From a virus (taxonomy: Duplodnaviria; Caudoviricetes): a stretch of 64,000 bases of DNA. Both the position numbers and the translations under genes were made by a program. Of the stretch, positions 22,375-37,442 are shown piece by piece. A model generated the notes under the pieces. It saw nothing but the letters and a program-made list of their open reading frames with translations. It was not told where the DNA came from and did no database searches. The stretch spans positions 19,220-83,219 of the IMG/VR virus record IMGVR_UViG_2974625740_000001; one strand, given 5' to 3'. Each line of letters begins with the position of its first letter. Positions within the stretch are counted from its first letter, which is position 1.

Positions 22375-23307
22375 GTGGGCAAGCTGGATCAGCTGCTCGA
22401 CCAGGGCGACATCTGGGTTGACAAGAACGAGGTCATCCACCAGATCGAAGCGATGGACGGCCGGTACGCGCTCAACGTGTACAACTGGCTGAAGTCCCGC
22501 GCGATGCAGATCGGCTTTCACTACGCCCTCAACCTCGCGGGCATGCGCCTGCCGGACGAGGACACCGTGGCTTACCTGCACGTCACCGACGCCATCGAGC
22601 GTGAGCAGGAGCGCATCAGCAACGACCCGGAAGGGTGGATCAAGGACAAGCCGCTGATGCGCGCACTCATCGCGCGAGTGGCGGTCGACCGGATCACCCG
22701 TGACCAGGCTGGCTACATCCCGCCGACCTCGCCGCTCCCGGCCAAGTTCACCAAGTACGAGGCCAAGCCGTTCGAGCAGCAGCACGTGCGCGACCTCGAC
22801 ACCGAGCGGTTCGGCCAGCGACCGGGAGACGAGACCCGGGTCTTCCTGGTCATCGAACCGGGCGGGTATGACGACAAAGACACCATCCTCGCGTGCTTCG
22901 TCGGCAACCGGCTGGCCGCGTACCGGTTCGAGGTCGAGGCCGAGCTGTACGGCGGGTACGCCGAGGTCATCGAGCTGGACGACAACCACGCAGGCAAGAC
23001 CGAGGGCATGTACGGTCAGATCCGGCGGTACCGCGACCCGTGGACCGAGGTGGAGTACCGCACCCTGGTCAACCTGGAAAACGCGGCGATCATTCGCGAT
23101 GACGACGTCGTGACCCGCGTCCGCAACGACATCGACCCGACTATGGGCACGACCAAGGAGGCGGACGGCCTGCGCGGTCGGTATAACGTCTGGGTCAAGA
23201 CCACCGGCCCGGACCTCGACATCGACGCCGTCCGCAGCTACCACAGCAACGCCGTGAACACCATCCGGGCCAACGTGCTCGCCGACCTCACGAAGGATAT
23301 GCCGTGA
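22375..23307 (+). CDS. hypothetical protein
   Basis: RBS AAGGAGG; phage-like codon usage. Confidence 0.75.
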   Translation: MGKLDQLLDQGDIWVDKNEVIHQIEAMDGRYALNVYNWLKSRAMQIGFHYALNLAGMRLPDEDTVAYLHVTDAIEREQERISNDPEGWIKDKPLMRALIARVAVDRITRDQAGYIPPTSPLPAKFTKYEAKPFEQQHVRDLDTERFGQRPGDETRVFLVIEPGGYDDKDTILACFVGNRLAAYRFEVEAELYGGYAEVIELDDNHAGKTEGMYGQIRRYRDPWTEVEYRTLVNLENAAIIRDDDVVTRVRNDIDPTMGTTKEADGLRGRYNVWVKTTGPDLDIDAVRSYHSNAVNTIRANVLADLTKDMP

Positions 23308-25694
23308 TTCCTGCTCAGCACCCCGAGCTGAAGATCCCCGAGGGCTGGAACGCGACCCAGGTCGGAAACGACCTACTGCCCGACCTTCCGCCCGGGTGGC
23401 CGGTCGCGTGGGACACCGAGGGCTCCGGCCTGGCCGTGGACGGCGAGCCGTTCGTCACGGCCGGTCGGCCCGCGCACCCCGAGGCCCGCATCAGTGCGGT
23501 CTCCGTGTCCTTCCGCTGGCCCAACCCGGACGGTACCCCGGGCGAGATCGTCGACTTCGCGTGGCCGTTCGATCAGGGCCCCGTGCTGGGCAAGCCGGGT
23601 CACCCTCAGAAGGACCCCGTCACCGGTATCGTCACCTTCAAGCCGATCGACGAGGCCGACCAGGCGAAGATCCTGGCCCAGCACTCGAAGTCGCTCGGGT
23701 ACACCGTGACGCCCGAGATGGCCATGCCCAACCTGCACCCGGACGAGTACGGCGTGCTGGTGATGTGGCTCGACTTCCGGGACAACCTCGCCGCGCACAA
23801 CAGCGTTCACGACATGCACCAGGAGCGGGTCGGCCTGCGCGCCGACGCTGGCGGGTTCGGCGGACCCGAGGGCCTGTGGGCCTGGGACCCGGACACCGAA
23901 CCCGGCTCGCTGGCCAAGTCGATCATGGACGGCAGCACGCCCAAGCTCCACATGATGGAGCCGACCCGGGTACCGCTGTCGTTCTCGAAGTCGCGCCGGA
24001 ACATCTGGTGCACCATGGTCGTGCAGAAGCAGGTCGTCGACCCGCTCCAGCCCGCTGCTCTCAAGCCGACTGCGCGTCGGCTGTGGGGTGACGACTCGAC
24101 CGACGAAGAGACCGCGCTGGCGGAGGAGCTGAAGCGCCAGGGGGTCGGCCTCACCAAGCGGTACGACCTGCTGCCTTGGTGCGGTGCGGTCGGCGTCTAC
24201 GCGGCCAAGGACACCAACCTGTGCTACCGGCTCTGGGAGTACCAGGAGAACGTCGGCGAAGAGGGCCTGATCCCGAAGTATTGGGAGCTGGTCAACACCG
24301 AGATGGAGCTTCGCACGACCCTGTACCGGATGGAACGGCGCGGGGTGGCGTACAACGCCGAGGAGTCGTTCGCCGAGGGCAAGCGCGTCCGGGCGATCAA
24401 CGCGGAGAAGGCCCGCGAGCTGCCGTTCAACCCCTCCAAGCGACTGGAGGCCGCACGGTTCTACTTCGGCCCCGTCTGCCTGAACGAGATCAACCGCACC
24501 CGACGGAACGTCAAGCCGCAAGAGACCGTGTGGTCGGCGTTCTTCTGCGCCAAGTCGTGCACCGAGTGTGAGGGCAAGAACGGCCTGGGCCTGGAGCCGA
24601 CCGAGCGCACGCCGACCGGACAGCCCAAGCTCGACATCCCGGAGAAGATCCGGCTGGACGAGGCAGGCCACCCGTTCGCGGCCGAGCTGATGGCGTGGAC
24701 CAAGCGCCGTGACGCTGACTCGAAGTGGTACACCGGATGGGCCGCGCGGGTCGGCCGTGACGGTCGCATCCGGACCTCGTTCAAGCAGTGCAAGAACGAC
24801 AAGGAGCGCGCCGGAGCGGCCGAGGGCGGCACCAAGTCCGGCCGTCTCGCGGTCGGCCGCTGGCAGTGCCAGGCGATCCCGCACATCGAGTTGGTGCCCA
24901 AGGACGCCAAGCCGGTGCGGCCGATGATTGGCCAGGTCCCGCCGGGCACCATGGTCACCCGCTGGGACGGCACCAAGGAGCCCACCCCGGTTCGCCGCAT
25001 CCAGTTCGAGCACGACCTGTCGGCTGGTGAGGTCCGAGTGGTCACCGTGATCAGCGGTTCCACCAAGTTCTGGGACGCCCTCGACGCGGGCATGGACATG
25101 CACGCCCTCAACGCCAAGTCGCTGTTCGGCGTCGACGAGTCCCACCCCCAGTTCAAGTACCTGCGGTCGGCCGCCAAGCGCGGTACCTTCGGCATCATCT
25201 ACCTGGGTGGCGTGAAGGCCATCCAGACCCAGATGGAAGCCGCGTCCGGCATGAAGATGAAGACCACCGACGTCCAGAAGGCCAAAGACAACTTCTGGGC
25301 CGAGAACCCCGAGATCAAGGCGTTCAGCGACCGGGCCGTGCAGCGGGTCACCCGGTGGATGGGCGGACCTGGCTACCTCAAGATGCTGGACGGGTGGCGT
25401 CGCTGGTACGCGGTCGACGAGAAGACCGTCAGCGCGCCGAACCAGGTCATCCAGGGCAACCTCGCCCGAGCCATGATCTACTGGATGACGGCGGTCGAGC
25501 GCGAGGTCCCGGGGTGCCTTCTCCTCCAGGTGCACGACTCCCTCGTGACCGAGCACGACGACACGCCCGAGGGTCACGCCGAGGCCAAGCTGGTGAGCGA
25601 GATCGGTCAGCGCGTCTTCCAAGAGTACTTCAACGTGCGAGGCCGCGTGATGGACTTCGGCATCGCTCCCGACCGATGGGACGAGAAGGCATGA
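23304..25694 (+). CDS. family A DNA polymerase with 3'-5' exonuclease (candidate DpoZ)
   Basis: WDTEGSGL, AHNSVHD, YAAKDT (exo I-III); TKSGRL; HDLSAGEVR (motif A); RSAAKRGTFGIIY (motif B); QVHDSLV (motif C). Confidence 0.9.
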   Translation: MIPAQHPELKIPEGWNATQVGNDLLPDLPPGWPVAWDTEGSGLAVDGEPFVTAGRPAHPEARISAVSVSFRWPNPDGTPGEIVDFAWPFDQGPVLGKPGHPQKDPVTGIVTFKPIDEADQAKILAQHSKSLGYTVTPEMAMPNLHPDEYGVLVMWLDFRDNLAAHNSVHDMHQERVGLRADAGGFGGPEGLWAWDPDTEPGSLAKSIMDGSTPKLHMMEPTRVPLSFSKSRRNIWCTMVVQKQVVDPLQPAALKPTARRLWGDDSTDEETALAEELKRQGVGLTKRYDLLPWCGAVGVYAAKDTNLCYRLWEYQENVGEEGLIPKYWELVNTEMELRTTLYRMERRGVAYNAEESFAEGKRVRAINAEKARELPFNPSKRLEAARFYFGPVCLNEINRTRRNVKPQETVWSAFFCAKSCTECEGKNGLGLEPTERTPTGQPKLDIPEKIRLDEAGHPFAAELMAWTKRRDADSKWYTGWAARVGRDGRIRTSFKQCKNDKERAGAAEGGTKSGRLAVGRWQCQAIPHIELVPKDAKPVRPMIGQVPPGTMVTRWDGTKEPTPVRRIQFEHDLSAGEVRVVTVISGSTKFWDALDAGMDMHALNAKSLFGVDESHPQFKYLRSAAKRGTFGIIYLGGVKAIQTQMEAASGMKMKTTDVQKAKDNFWAENPEIKAFSDRAVQRVTRWMGGPGYLKMLDGWRRWYAVDEKTVSAPNQVIQGNLARAMIYWMTAVEREVPGCLLLQVHDSLVTEHDDTPEGHAEAKLVSEIGQRVFQEYFNVRGRVMDFGIAPDRWDEKA

Positions 25695-30580: not shown

Positions 30581-31696
30581 GTGGGTGGCAAGCTTCTGGT
30601 AGTGGCCGGAGCCCAGTACGGTTCCGAGGCCAAGGGACACGTCGCTGACCAGCTCAGCCGACCGGCCGTCGCGAGTGACAACGTGGTCGTCATGCGGGTG
30701 GCGGGACCGAACGCGGGTCACACCGTGTACGGCCTGTGCCCCAACGACTGCACCCCGGACGACTCGCACATGTCCGGCGAGAACTGGATCGGGCACCCGT
30801 GGCGGCTGCGCACCGTGCCGGTGGGGGCCGTCAGCAACCCCGATGCCGACCTGGTCATCGCCGCCGGTTCCGAGATCGACTACAACGTGCTCATGTCGGA
30901 GGTCGTCGCGCTAGACGCCGCCGGATACAAGGTCAGCCAGCGGCTGGTCATCGACACCCAAGCGACGCTGCTCGAACCGCGTCACATCCAGGAGGAGGTC
31001 GACGCCAAGATCCAGGAGCGTCTCGGCTCCACCGCCAAGGGCATCGGGGCGGCTCGCGCCGACCGCATCTGGCGACTGGCCAAGACCTGGGGTGACCACA
31101 TCCAAGACGAGGGCCGGATCGAGTCCGCCGAGTTCGTGCGGGGTCGGCTGGCCGACGGCGCTACGGTCGTGATCGAGGGGACCCAGGGGTTCGGCCTCGG
31201 GCTGCACGCGGGTCACTACCCCCAGTGCACCTCGTCCGACTGCCGCGCGATCGACTTCCTGTCCATGGCTGGCCTCAGCCCGTGGATGCGCGAGGTCGAC
31301 GAGTTCGGCGTCTGGCTGGCCGCCCGGGTCCGCCCGATCCGCGTGGCGGGCAACTCCGGCCCGATGAAGAACGAGACCACCTGGCAGGACCTGCGTCTGC
31401 CGGAGGAGTACACGACCGTGACCAAGAAGGTCCGGCGCGTGGGCGAGTGGGACGGCGAACTCGTCGCCCGCGCCGTGATCGCCAACGGCGGTGCTCCGGC
31501 CGTCCGGGTCGCGCTGACCATGGTCGACAGCATCTTCGACGAGATCCGCAACGCCGAGGGCATGTTCGACGACGTCGACTGGACGCACGAGGTTGCACCC
31601 CCGCTGCCCAAGATCGTGACCAACATCGAGCGCGAGATCGGGGCCCCGATCCGCATGATCACCACCTCGCCGACCACTGCCCTCTGGAGGCCGTGA
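30581..31696 (+). CDS. purZ: PurZ/PurZ0-type 2-amino-deoxyadenylosuccinate synthetase
   Basis: PurA fold (GPNAGHT, GSTAKGIGAA, EGTQG, TTVTKKVRRVG); Ser15 in GAQYGSEAKG replaces the PurA catalytic Asp; TMVD at the PurA TKLD site. Confidence 0.85.
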   Translation: MGGKLLVVAGAQYGSEAKGHVADQLSRPAVASDNVVVMRVAGPNAGHTVYGLCPNDCTPDDSHMSGENWIGHPWRLRTVPVGAVSNPDADLVIAAGSEIDYNVLMSEVVALDAAGYKVSQRLVIDTQATLLEPRHIQEEVDAKIQERLGSTAKGIGAARADRIWRLAKTWGDHIQDEGRIESAEFVRGRLADGATVVIEGTQGFGLGLHAGHYPQCTSSDCRAIDFLSMAGLSPWMREVDEFGVWLAARVRPIRVAGNSGPMKNETTWQDLRLPEEYTTVTKKVRRVGEWDGELVARAVIANGGAPAVRVALTMVDSIFDEIRNAEGMFDDVDWTHEVAPPLPKIVTNIEREIGAPIRMITTSPTTALWRP

Positions 31697-32958
31697 CCAT
31701 GGGTGCTGACTTCCACATCCACCTCCCCAAGCGGGACGACCCCGACCACTGCGGTCGCGAGGGGTGCGCCCGTCACTACAGCCACCCCGTCCACGCGCCC
31801 TCGGAGGCCCTCCGGAGGCTCTCGGAGCTGCCGCCGGACCTCCGCCCCCTGGAGCACCACGAGAGGGCTTCCGGAGCCCCCTACGTGCCCGCGCAGAGGG
31901 ACGCGGCCCCCGCCACCCACACCGGCCGTCCGGCCATGCACCCGGGAACTACCATCCGGGTGGCCAAGATGGGCGAGCCGCAGCGCGACGCCACCCCCGC
32001 CGAAATCGCCGCGTACCTCAAGGCGAATCCGCACATGAACCAGGACCCCGACCTGTACTGCTCGCACCCCAACGGGTTCGGCCCGAACGGGTGCCCGTGC
32101 GGCAAGGGCCAGCCGGGTGAGGACGACCCCGAGACCGTGCGCAACATCGATACGGGCGAGGACGTTCCCGCCACCCGCTGCCCCGAGTGTCAGGAGGCGG
32201 TGCCGACCGACCAGCTCCTGGCGCACATGCGCGACGTCGAGGCGTCCGATCAGGAGGACATCGACGCGATGGCCGAGCTGCTCGGTCTGCCGACGCTGCC
32301 GCCCCCCAACATGACCATCAACACGGTCGGGGAGGACTCGCCCATCTGGGGTCGTCCGATCGGCTGCCCGGTTCGCGAGAGGGAGCTGGCCGAGGGTGTG
32401 CCTACCTCGTGCCCGGGTCGTGCTGGCCACACCAAGGGAACCATCCGGCGGCATCTCCAGACCGTTCACTCGTGGAACGGCGACCAGTGGAACGACTGGG
32501 CCGAGTCGGTCAACTTCCTGGAGCTGCCCAGCGTCCCGAAGTCCATCCTCGACGAGATGGAGGCCCTGGGGAAGCGCGTCGACGCCTTCCTGGACCCTGA
32601 CATCACGATGGAGCAGATCATGTCCGACGCGCAGCAGAACGGCACCGAGATCCTGACCGAGTGGTGGCTGAAGCGAGCCGCCGCAGAGGCCGAGGGCGTG
32701 GTGCCCAAGTCGATCGAGTACGGGTCGAACAGCCTGATGCAGCTCGGTCGCAAGATGGCCCAGCTCCAGGGTCGCGAGGTGTCCGAGGCCGAGGCCCTGG
32801 AACTCGGCTGCTGGGCCAACTGCATCCAGAAGATCGAGCGCTGGACGGACGCCGTGATGCGGGGTGAGCGTCCCTCGGACGACACGATCCTCGACGCGGG
32901 GGTCTACCTCAAGATGGTCCAGCGCATCCGCGACTCGGGGTCCTGGCCCGGAGTCTGA
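31693..32958 (+). CDS. Zn-finger array fused to a C-terminal DUF1599/Nmad1-like (all-alpha NTP-PPase-like) domain
   Basis: Four Cys/His knuckles; KSIEYG...KIERW...DDTILDAGVYLKM. Confidence 0.55.
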   Translation: MTMGADFHIHLPKRDDPDHCGREGCARHYSHPVHAPSEALRRLSELPPDLRPLEHHERASGAPYVPAQRDAAPATHTGRPAMHPGTTIRVAKMGEPQRDATPAEIAAYLKANPHMNQDPDLYCSHPNGFGPNGCPCGKGQPGEDDPETVRNIDTGEDVPATRCPECQEAVPTDQLLAHMRDVEASDQEDIDAMAELLGLPTLPPPNMTINTVGEDSPIWGRPIGCPVRERELAEGVPTSCPGRAGHTKGTIRRHLQTVHSWNGDQWNDWAESVNFLELPSVPKSILDEMEALGKRVDAFLDPDITMEQIMSDAQQNGTEILTEWWLKRAAAEAEGVVPKSIEYGSNSLMQLGRKMAQLQGREVSEAEALELGCWANCIQKIERWTDAVMRGERPSDDTILDAGVYLKMVQRIRDSGSWPGV

Positions 32959-33030
32959 GTCAATCCGTCAATCCGAGCACAACCAACGGCGGGGGTGGCG
33001 GTGCTGCCCCCGCCCGGCTGGAGGGCCGAC

Positions 33031-33909
33031 ATGAAGAACGACCGACTGATCTACCTGGCACACCCGATCGACATGGGCCGCGCGTGCCCCGACCTGCTCA
33101 ACTACGCGGTCGGCGAACTCCAGGCCCTGGGCCTGCCGACGTACAACCCGCTGACCGCGTTCAACGTGAGCGGTCAGCCGTCTGGGGTGATCAACCGCGT
33201 GAACGAGGCCGCCATGCTCGCCAGCTCGGGGGCGGTGGCGTTCCTGCCGAAGGACACCCCGACCATCGGCACCCCGGCCGAGATCTCGTGGCTGATGACG
33301 CACGGCAAGCCGGTCCTGATCCTGACCGACATCGACACCTCATGGGTCGTCGCGGGCTGGCGCGGTCAGCTCTTCACCGAGGTGCACCATCTGGACGAGG
33401 AGGGCGTCAGCGCGGGCATCGACTGGCTGACCGACCGGATGTCGTACCTGGACGACAACCCCGAGTTCGGCGACGTCGAGCCGATCGTGTTCGAGAAGGC
33501 CAAGCAGGACGCCACTCTCCCGACCAAGGGGTACGCCGACGACGCCGGATACGACCTGTACGCCAGCGACGAGGTCGTCGTTCCGGCTCGGGGTCAGGCC
33601 ACGGTGCCGCTCGGCGTCAAGGTGGACATCCCCGAGGGTCTGTGGGCCCAGATCACTGGCCGAAGCTCGACGCTCAAGAACCTCAACCTGATGGTCGCCC
33701 CCACGGTCGGCGTGATCGACGAGGGGTACACGGGCGAGCTGTTCGCTCCCGTGGTCAGTAACGCGGACGAGGACGTGAAGATCGAGCGCGGGCAGCGGAT
33801 CGCCCAGCTCATCCTTCACGAGGCCCCGGGCCAGCGCTTCACGCCCGTGTGGGGCGTCGCCCGCCGGAAGGAGCGGGGAGCGAACGGCTTCGGATCTACC
33901 GGTCGCTGA
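33031..33909 (+). CDS. dut: nucleoside deoxyribosyltransferase-like domain fused to a trimeric dUTPase
   Basis: IYLAHP...GTPAEI...GKPV (NDT/DNPH1-like); AGYDL, GRSS, GVIDEGYTGE, RIAQL, RGANGFGSTG (dUTPase motifs 1-5). Confidence 0.85.
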   Translation: MKNDRLIYLAHPIDMGRACPDLLNYAVGELQALGLPTYNPLTAFNVSGQPSGVINRVNEAAMLASSGAVAFLPKDTPTIGTPAEISWLMTHGKPVLILTDIDTSWVVAGWRGQLFTEVHHLDEEGVSAGIDWLTDRMSYLDDNPEFGDVEPIVFEKAKQDATLPTKGYADDAGYDLYASDEVVVPARGQATVPLGVKVDIPEGLWAQITGRSSTLKNLNLMVAPTVGVIDEGYTGELFAPVVSNADEDVKIERGQRIAQLILHEAPGQRFTPVWGVARRKERGANGFGSTGR

Positions 33910-36068: not shown

Positions 36069-37442
36069 GTGCAAACCGAACTCGACCGATACACCACCCC
36101 CCAGATGGACACCATCTGGTCACCGGACTGGAAGCTCCGGCGGTGGGCCGAGATCGAGCTGGCCGCTGCGGAGGCCCTCGGTGCCCCCTCGGAGGCCCTC
36201 GCGCAGATCAGCCGGGCATCGGTCCCGTCGGCGCAGGCCGTGGCCACGGAGGAGGCCACGACGCGCCACGACGTGATCGCCTTCCTGAACCTCTGGCGCA
36301 CGGGCATGGGCCCGGAGGGTCGGGCCTGGTCGCACAAGGGCCTGACCAGCTCGGACGTCGTCGACACCGCGAACGCCCTCCGCATGAAGGCCAGCACCGA
36401 CGCCATCCGCGTGAACCTGGGTCGGCTGTCCAAGGCGGTCGGCCAGAACGCCCTCCTGTACAAGGACGCGGTCCGGGTCGGTCGCACCCACGGTCAACAC
36501 GCGGAGGTCACAACGTGGGGGTGGCGGCTGGCCGTTTCGTTCTACGACCTTCAGCGCGCCGAGCGGCGGCTGTCGATGCTGGCCGAGCTGTACGAGGTCG
36601 GCAAGCTGTCGGGACCGGTCGGCGACTACAAGTCGATGACCCCGGCGGCTGAGCTGACCGCGCTTCAGGGCCTGGGCCTGCGACCGGCCGGAGCCACCAC
36701 CCAGGTGGTCACCCGGGACGTCTACGTCGACTACCTGCACGCTCTCGCGCAGATCGCCAACGTGGTCGAGTCGCTGGCGCTGGAGATCCGGCTGTCCTCG
36801 CGGTCCGAGGTCGCCGAGATGCGCGAGGGCTTCAGCTCCGGCCAACGCGGTTCGTCGGCGATGCCGCACAAGCGGAACCCGATCGGGTCGGAACAGCTCT
36901 GCGGACTCGCCCGGCTGGTGCGGGCTCAGGTGGAACCGGTCGCGCAGGGGGTGGCGTTGCACCACGAGCGCGACATCTCGCACTCGTCGGTCGAGCGGGT
37001 CGCGTTGTCCACCGCCAGCCGCGTGGTCGACTACATGCTCGAAACCGCCACCGCCCTCGTTAACAACCTGCGGGTCGACGTCGACCGGATGCGCGCGAAC
37101 GTGGTCGATAACCCGAGCCTGCTCAGCTCGCTGATCAAGAACGCGCTGACCGAGCAGCACAACATCGACCCGCACTGGGCGTACGAGGTCGTGTTCTACG
37201 GGTTCGAGGACTGGGGTCGGCCGGACCACGGCGGGTTCGACACGCTGGCCGACGCCCTGGCCGACGCGTGGTACCGGCTGGCCGAGACGCAGCACCTCGA
37301 CGCGCACGTCCCGGGCCTCGACTTCGAGGACCTGGTGGCCATCGGGGACGACATCACGACGCTGACCGGCGGGACTGACCCCGTGTTCAAGGAGATCGAG
37401 TTCCTGATCAGCGACCAGAAGGGCGACCCGTCCGCCTGGTGA
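36069..37442 (+). CDS. purB: adenylosuccinate lyase
   Basis: TRHDV, HKGLTSSDVVD, GRTHGQHA, GSSAMPHKRNP fumarate-lyase signature, HERDISHSSVER. Confidence 0.92.
   Translation: MQTELDRYTTPQMDTIWSPDWKLRRWAEIELAAAEALGAPSEALAQISRASVPSAQAVATEEATTRHDVIAFLNLWRTGMGPEGRAWSHKGLTSSDVVDTANALRMKASTDAIRVNLGRLSKAVGQNALLYKDAVRVGRTHGQHAEVTTWGWRLAVSFYDLQRAERRLSMLAELYEVGKLSGPVGDYKSMTPAAELTALQGLGLRPAGATTQVVTRDVYVDYLHALAQIANVVESLALEIRLSSRSEVAEMREGFSSGQRGSSAMPHKRNPIGSEQLCGLARLVRAQVEPVAQGVALHHERDISHSSVERVALSTASRVVDYMLETATALVNNLRVDVDRMRANVVDNPSLLSSLIKNALTEQHNIDPHWAYEVVFYGFEDWGRPDHGGFDTLADALADAWYRLAETQHLDAHVPGLDFEDLVAIGDDITTLTGGTDPVFKEIEFLISDQKGDPSAW

Follow-up and report, generated by a model that had tools for sequence, protein, structure and literature searches.

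The window analysed here covers bases 19220-83219 (64,000 nt) of a virus record of 83,219 bp that was judged to be complete, and it has a G+C content of ~66% throughout. On its plus strand, the window encodes a family-A DNA polymerase (PolA; 23304-25694), a predicted PurZ0-type N6-succino-2-amino-2'-deoxyadenylate synthase (30581-31696), a gene coupled to the latter (31699-32958), a putative DmtZ-DutZ-type fusion (33031-33909), and an adenylosuccinate lyase (PurB; 36069-37442). The PurZ0 gene is closest at the DNA level to that of Streptomyces phage Spocter (97.8% identity), followed by those of Keanu (84%) and Galactica (82%), the last two being classified in the genus Hiyaavirus; the gene order of the PurZ0 cluster is common to the window and all three of these phages. 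Spocter, Keanu, and Galactica are already represented in GenBank, where the PurZ0 gene is annotated as "PurA-like adenylosuccinate synthetase", and a literature search returned no paper on 2-aminoadenine (Z) in Hiyaavirus-like Streptomyces phages and no base-composition data for this phage or its relatives. PurZ0 is already well described as a kind of enzyme (Tong et al. 2023 as cited in PMC12884076; PMC12884076), and the cluster in the window is a further, predicted example of the gene set already described for the replacement of adenine (A) by Z. Between the polymerase and PurZ0 genes, an ORF at 28669-29529 matches PHROG 1128 ("enoyl-CoA hydratase/carnithine racemase-like", E 3e-23); its counterparts in the related phages are annotated as peptidase or cysteine protease.

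The PurZ0 gene encodes a protein of 371 aa from a GTG start located eight bases 3' of AAGGGGG, and the identical start is annotated in Spocter. The original prediction for this gene drew on two motifs, a P-loop whose Ser replaces the catalytic Asp of PurA and a TMVD at the site of the PurA TKLD, and both are borne out by translation and by a 102-sequence L-INS-i alignment. The P-loop GAQYGSEAKG lies at 30608-30637, with the Ser15 codon at 30623-30625, and Ser15 aligns with Asp13 of Escherichia coli PurA (GTQWGDEGKG). The T-M-V-D sequence (T313-M-V-D316; 31517-31528) lies at the PurA (N/T)KxD guanine-specificity site, within nucleotides 31511-31534 that translate to ALTMVDSI; it aligns with T-K-L-D of E. 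coli PurA and N-F-C-N of phiVC8 PurZ, and the Asp (Asp316) is kept. Neither Ser15 nor Asp316 varies among 25 diverse PurZ0-clade representatives. The protein also keeps the catalytic His47 (NAGHT) and the GTQG, IRVAGNSG, and TTVT motifs. Unlike the PurZ0 of Wayne (Arthrobacter phage) and Archimedes (Gordonia phage), in which it is missing from the alignment, the window PurZ0 has after NAGHTVY a lineage-specific insert of ~20 residues, GLCPNDCTPDDSHMSGENWI (30731-30790), that includes Cys53, Cys57, and His63; alignment with Keanu and Galactica gives the pattern G-x-C-P-x-D-C-x-P-D-x-S-H-M-S-G-x-x-W-I, which all four Streptomyces phage enzymes have in common. The two Cys and the single His of this insert could form a small metal-binding knuckle.

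Searches against family models and solved structures place the protein with PurZ0. It matches Pfam PF00709 (Adenylsucc_synt; E 3e-33) and PHROG 1211 ("2-aminooxy adenylosuccinate synthetase"; E 9e-82), and scores 374.2 bits against the cut-off of 300 for the NCBIfam PurZ model NF038379, which covers PurZ in the broad sense. Every NCBIfam PurA model scored below its cut-off, including the bacterial (TIGR00184; 131.6 vs 395.55) and archaeal-type (NF003295; 184.8 vs 368) equivalogs. The best solved relative is PDB 7VF6 (E 1e-83, aligned over residues 1-328), which is the PurZ0 of Gordonia phage Archimedes (PMC12884076), followed by the short PurA of Pyrococcus horikoshii (1e-31), phiVC8 PurZ (6e-23), and S-2L PurZ (3e-15). 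The P. horikoshii enzyme (5K7X) is of similar length, aligns end to end with the window protein, and has T-M-L-D at the GTP site, but its substrate is IMP and its P-loop (GGQWGDEGKG) retains the catalytic Asp, where the window PurZ0 has Ser. Against phage genomes, identity is 44-49% to the PurZ0 of Arthrobacter, Gordonia, Microbacterium, and Micrococcus phages, and 25-33% to the PurZ of Vibrio, Acinetobacter, Salmonella, and Burkholderia phages. The closest of the Gordonia and Arthrobacter phage enzymes (48-49% identity) have in common with the window protein the Ser P-loop (GxQ[FY]GSEAKG), the (T/S)-M-x-D site, and a clade. The ATP/dATP-dependent PurZ of phiVC8 and S-2L resemble it in fold and in the Asp-to-Ser change, and the same reaction on dGMP and aspartate would be expected; however, they differ in having QFGSTGKG and N-F-x-(N/Q), and they form a separate clade.

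An exhaustive HMMER search retrieved 301 cluster representatives at E <= 1e-30 among 1.84 billion, which shows that the PurZ0 clade is large in metagenomes. We constructed a maximum-likelihood tree of 102 rows, comprising the window protein, Spocter gp66, the PurZ0 of Archimedes and Wayne, four PurZ, E. coli PurA, 13 metagenomic representatives, and 80 loci from species-representative genomes. In this tree, a clade of 21-22 rows (SH-aLRT 96 and 97) unites the window PurZ0 and Spocter gp66 with the Archimedes and Wayne enzymes. The four PurZ group by themselves (support 100), and a further, separate clade holds 72 rows of cellular homologues that carry Ser or Gly. The tree is weakly rooted, because the search was quick and the sole canonical PurA (E. 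coli) is a long branch, but the grouping of the window protein with PurZ0 is independent of the root. The agreement between the HMM match, the closest structure, the phylogeny, both diagnostic residues, and the gene neighbourhood supports the prediction that this gene encodes a protein of the PurZ0 branch, and the original assignment as PurZ0-type therefore stands on NF038379, 7VF6, the PurZ0 clade, Ser15 and Asp316, and the neighbouring genes.

Several homologues in these data have features of their own. A large clade of short PurA homologues with GSEGKG or GGEGKG and with L-N-H-x-D-Y or H-G-x-D-Y (loci L025-L093) is encoded chromosomally in many phyla of bacteria and in some archaea. At 53 of the 80 PurA-like loci there is a homologue of a ~630-800-aa fusion of RNase_H_2 (DEDDh-like) and P-loop (AAA_18) domains (e.g., L078:587-4056 and L046:1084-4029), which nearly always ends just 5' of the PurA-like gene; PADLOC returned only partial "dCTPase" and DEDDh matches for this partner. 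In a 737-aa metagenomic PurZ0 (P0070), Hint and LAGLIDADG matches interrupt the sequence near GTQG, indicating an apparent intein.

The neighbourhood of the gene resembles that of Gordonia and Arthrobacter PurZ0 phages in the order of PurZ0, a small coupled gene, and DmtZ/DutZ, with the polymerase upstream; the window phage differs in having a Streptomyces host and a genome of 83 kb, against ~43-45 kb. The putative DmtZ-DutZ fusion (33031-33909, or from an alternative upstream GTG at 32995) combines an NDT-like dAMP N-glycosidase/transferase domain with a Dut-like dNTP pyrophosphatase domain. The Dut domain (33508-33906) matches Pfam dUTPase (E 6e-27) and scores above the cut-off for TIGR00576; N-terminal to it there is a weak Pfam match to Nuc_deoxyrib_tr. 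The fusion is colinear with the DmtZ-DutZ of Wayne (32% identity over the full length, E 6e-40), sharing with it the order of the two domains and a similar length (292-304 aa in the window, 306 aa in Wayne) (PMC12884076), although the window sequence is divergent. The Tyr, Asp, Pro, Asn, and Glu residues of DmtZ that were mutagenised in Ghobes (Y6, D12, P57, N77, and E103; PMC12884076 section 23) are all conserved (5/5). In described PurZ0 genomes, dutZ is present in 98 of 98 and dmtZ in 85, in 77 of which it is fused to dutZ (PMC12884076).

The PurB of the window phage (457 aa; 36069-37442) passes TIGR00928 (335 bits, cut-off 326), matches the adenylosuccinate lyase of Thermotoga maritima (1C3U; E 4e-76), and keeps the TSSDV, GRTHGQHAE, and GSSAMPHKRNP motifs. 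The lyase step is usually given in papers as a host function; with its own PurB, both steps from dGMP to dZMP would be phage-encoded. We considered a phage-borne PurB as a novelty and rejected it, since PurB-like lyases are already annotated in Gordonia PurZ0 phages. The Gordonia copies are, however, shorter, aligning at 33-37% identity over 55-58% of the length, whereas the window PurB is full length and closer to bacterial PurB.

PurZ0 phages rely on DutZ, DmtZ, and DUF5664-1 in place of DatZ and MazZ (PMC12884076 sections 24-26). A six-frame Pfam search of the whole 83-kb genome gave no match for HD/DatZ (PF01966), MazG (PF03819), DUF550 (PF04447), DUF5664 (PF18909), or DUF1599; positive controls matched for HD and MazG only, and the DUF5664 and DUF550 results are without a positive control. 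The helpers of PurZ, namely DatZ and MazZ/DUF550, were thus not matched in the window phage genome, and eight other candidate "MazG-like" ORFs in the 28.0-36.0 kb region had no Pfam match at E <= 0.01. The predicted helper set fits the PurZ0-type toolkit rather than the PurZ-type (PMC12884076 section 25).

The gene coupled to PurZ0 (31699-32958; 419 aa) starts 2 nt after the PurZ0 stop at 31696, with a TGA-cc-ATG junction. Its product has an N-terminal part that is variable and rich in Cys and His, and ends in a conserved helical domain of ~100 aa (32653-32958). The long variable N-terminal part sets it apart from the product of the small coupled gene in the Gordonia and Arthrobacter PurZ0 phages. 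This part (31699-32650) contains Cys/His pairs (e.g., CPCGKG, RCPECQ, and SCPGRAGH...HLQTVH), and its length differs strongly among relatives, the proteins having 419 aa in the window, 437 aa in Spocter, 450 aa in Keanu, and 315 aa in Galactica. The coupled protein has no Pfam, PHROG, NCBIfam, or PADLOC match, leaving a MazG/Nmad1-like identity for it unsupported.

For the helical domain we identified 29 homologues at E <= 1e-25 among 5.8 billion proteins, none of which (0/29) carries a Pfam domain; the C-terminal 120 aa of the coupled protein and 28 homologues likewise had no Pfam match. Invariant positions are K38, YGSNSL, E69, K79, R82, W83, D85, D96, and D100, and an AlphaFold2 model predicts four helices (pLDDT 91). 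Comparisons with DUF5664 were negative: BLASTP of the coupled protein found no match to the Wayne DUF5664, and hhalign gave a probability of <=1% against each of two DUF5664 alignments (0.05% for the one of 22 sequences). Foldseek returned no PDB match at E <= 0.001, a wide VIA-align search retrieved only generic helical hairpins (Z ~6), and the sole lead, a weak one to DUF1599, came from the ESM Atlas (14% of one cluster, score 0.93).

The helical domain is linked to PurZ0. It was found in 29 records of the phage collection, from phages of Microbacterium (18), Gordonia (6), Streptomyces (3), Micrococcus (1), and Curtobacterium (1); for the first three genera, the number of PurZ0-bearing records is the same. 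Outside Arthrobacter, every PurZ0 phage of this collection has the domain following PurZ0. It is found in none of the 105 Arthrobacter PurZ0 phages of the same collection, and in Arthrobacter PurZ0 phages a DUF5664-1 gene lies directly 3' of PurZ0 (also PMC12884076). The helical-domain gene is directly 3' of PurZ0 in Archimedes, Ghobes, and all four metagenomic contigs examined (4/4). Among the best 150 PurZ0 metagenomic representatives, an HMM of the domain detected at least 15 (including P0092, P0073, P0031, P0033, and P0114) in which it is joined to the C-terminal end of PurZ0, and one fusion protein of 1367 aa reads PurZ0, helical domain, HIRAN, dUTPase, and SAP. The domain is probably a physical partner of PurZ0. 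From its distribution, complementary to that of DUF5664-1, we would guess at a dGTP/dATP pyrophosphohydrolase or a regulatory subunit.

The family-A DNA polymerase (23304-25694; PF00476) is a candidate Z-incorporating replicase. It has 28% identity to the DpoZ-1 of Wayne (E 9e-61), and its best matches outside the cluster are the PolA of PurZ0 phages (Wayne, E 4e-53; Archimedes, 7e-39; PermaG, 9e-33), followed by those of non-PurZ Streptomyces phages (LazerLemon, 3e-25). In a 15-row tree, the window PolA lies within an actinophage PolA clade (support 100/99) that holds the DpoZ-1 references, where it is the long-branch sister (87/89) to these references together with the non-Z Streptomyces phage LazerLemon; the DpoZ-1 references alone are monophyletic in 38% of bootstrap trees. 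Membership of DpoZ-1 was therefore not demonstrated: the window PolA cannot be called DpoZ-1, given its sister position with LazerLemon inside and the 38% monophyly of the references, and its Z-selectivity is unproven, since the LazerLemon PolA, from a non-PurZ phage, is at least as close to those references. The long-branch position may instead reflect a separate recruitment of PolA into the Z pathway.

We consider that the phage most probably operates a PurZ0-type pathway by which most or all A in its DNA would be present as Z, and we assign this reading a probability of roughly 0.8; the presence of PurZ0-type accessory genes makes Z-containing DNA likely. Reasoning at every enzymatic step from characterised homologues, DutZ would convert dATP and dGTP to their monophosphates, removing dATP and supplying dGMP, while DmtZ would cleave dAMP to adenine, with a deoxyribose phosphate transferable to free Z base for salvage into dZMP. 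PurZ0 would combine dGMP and aspartate, with GTP, to form N6-succino-2-amino-dAMP (dSMP), from which the phage PurB would release fumarate to give dZMP. Host kinases would phosphorylate dZMP to dZTP, and the phage polymerase would then place Z opposite T. The 20-residue insert in the window PurZ0, as a lineage-specific feature, was counted against this explanation.

The gene might encode a genuine PurZ0 and yet the substitution be partial or conditional, should the polymerase not be Z-selective and the clearance of dATP by DutZ and DmtZ be incomplete. The position of the window PolA outside the DpoZ-1 references and the lack of a DatZ-type dATP triphosphohydrolase in the genome would be compatible with this; however, PurZ0 phages in general are without DatZ and use DutZ/DmtZ (PMC12884076 sections 24-26), the DmtZ catalytic residues are intact in the window fusion, and S-2L achieves full substitution with a non-selective polymerase via dATP depletion (PMC8342488). 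We therefore regard partial substitution as unlikely.

The choice of phosphate donor in the predicted PurZ0 reaction depends on the specificity site, which reads L-T-K-L-D in PurA, L-(T/S)-M-x-D in PurZ0, and L-N-F-(C/A)-N in PurZ in the alignment. The last of these, in phiVC8, DMU1, PMBT28, and BCSR129, agrees with the earlier expectation of Asn/Phe at this site in ATP-type PurZ. In phiVC8, NFCN corresponds to residues 294-297, the last N being N297, which is the residue named in PMC8342488. Because the PurZ, PurA, and PurZ0 motifs line up at this site, the alignment behind the original structural case for GTP use is correct, and from the invariant Asp316 and the kinship with a characterised PurZ0 (7VF6) we infer that GTP would be the phosphate donor of the window enzyme. 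Production of dSMP with ATP or dATP in place of GTP seems quite improbable; in its favour, the Lys of PurA T-K-L-D is Met in the window PurZ0, so that the pocket differs from that of PurA, and one sentence of PMC12884076 section 24 gives PurZ0 a preference for ATP, but that sentence reverses the ATP/GTP preferences stated in the paper's own introduction and in bioRxiv 10.1101/2025.10.22.683976, both of which treat ATP use as a derived state of PurZ, and it is probably an inversion. An ordinary PurA acting as an auxiliary metabolic gene, boosting AMP synthesis with the phage PurB while the DNA stays canonical, would account for the PF00709 match, the full PurB in the same region, and the GTP-site Asp retained as in PurA, but is highly improbable in view of the Ser at the catalytic Asp13 equivalent, scores far below the PurA equivalog cut-offs with the PurZ model passed, a position inside the PurZ0 clade, and an adjoining DmtZ-DutZ fusion related to characterised enzymes that break down dATP and dAMP (PMC12884076).

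Within the cluster for the favoured PurZ0-type pathway, the helical domain alone lacks an assigned function, and its natural fusions to PurZ0 clearly recommend it for biochemical study. We tentatively entertain, as a reading that is possible but on balance doubtful, that the domain would be a core subunit of the PurZ0 pathway, feeding dGMP to PurZ0 or regulating it in the place that DUF5664-1 occupies in Arthrobacter phages, and that the lineage would have its own PurB and a PolA recruited independently of DpoZ-1/DpoZ-2. Of practical interest are the lineage's own PurB and its PolA, which could not be placed in either described DpoZ group. The hosts of the Hiyaavirus-like phages are genetically tractable, so the prediction of Z should be easy to check. 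If Z is present in their DNA, the Hiyaavirus-like Streptomyces phages (Spocter, Keanu, Galactica, and the phage of the window record) would represent a second, larger-genome lineage of actinophages with Z-DNA.
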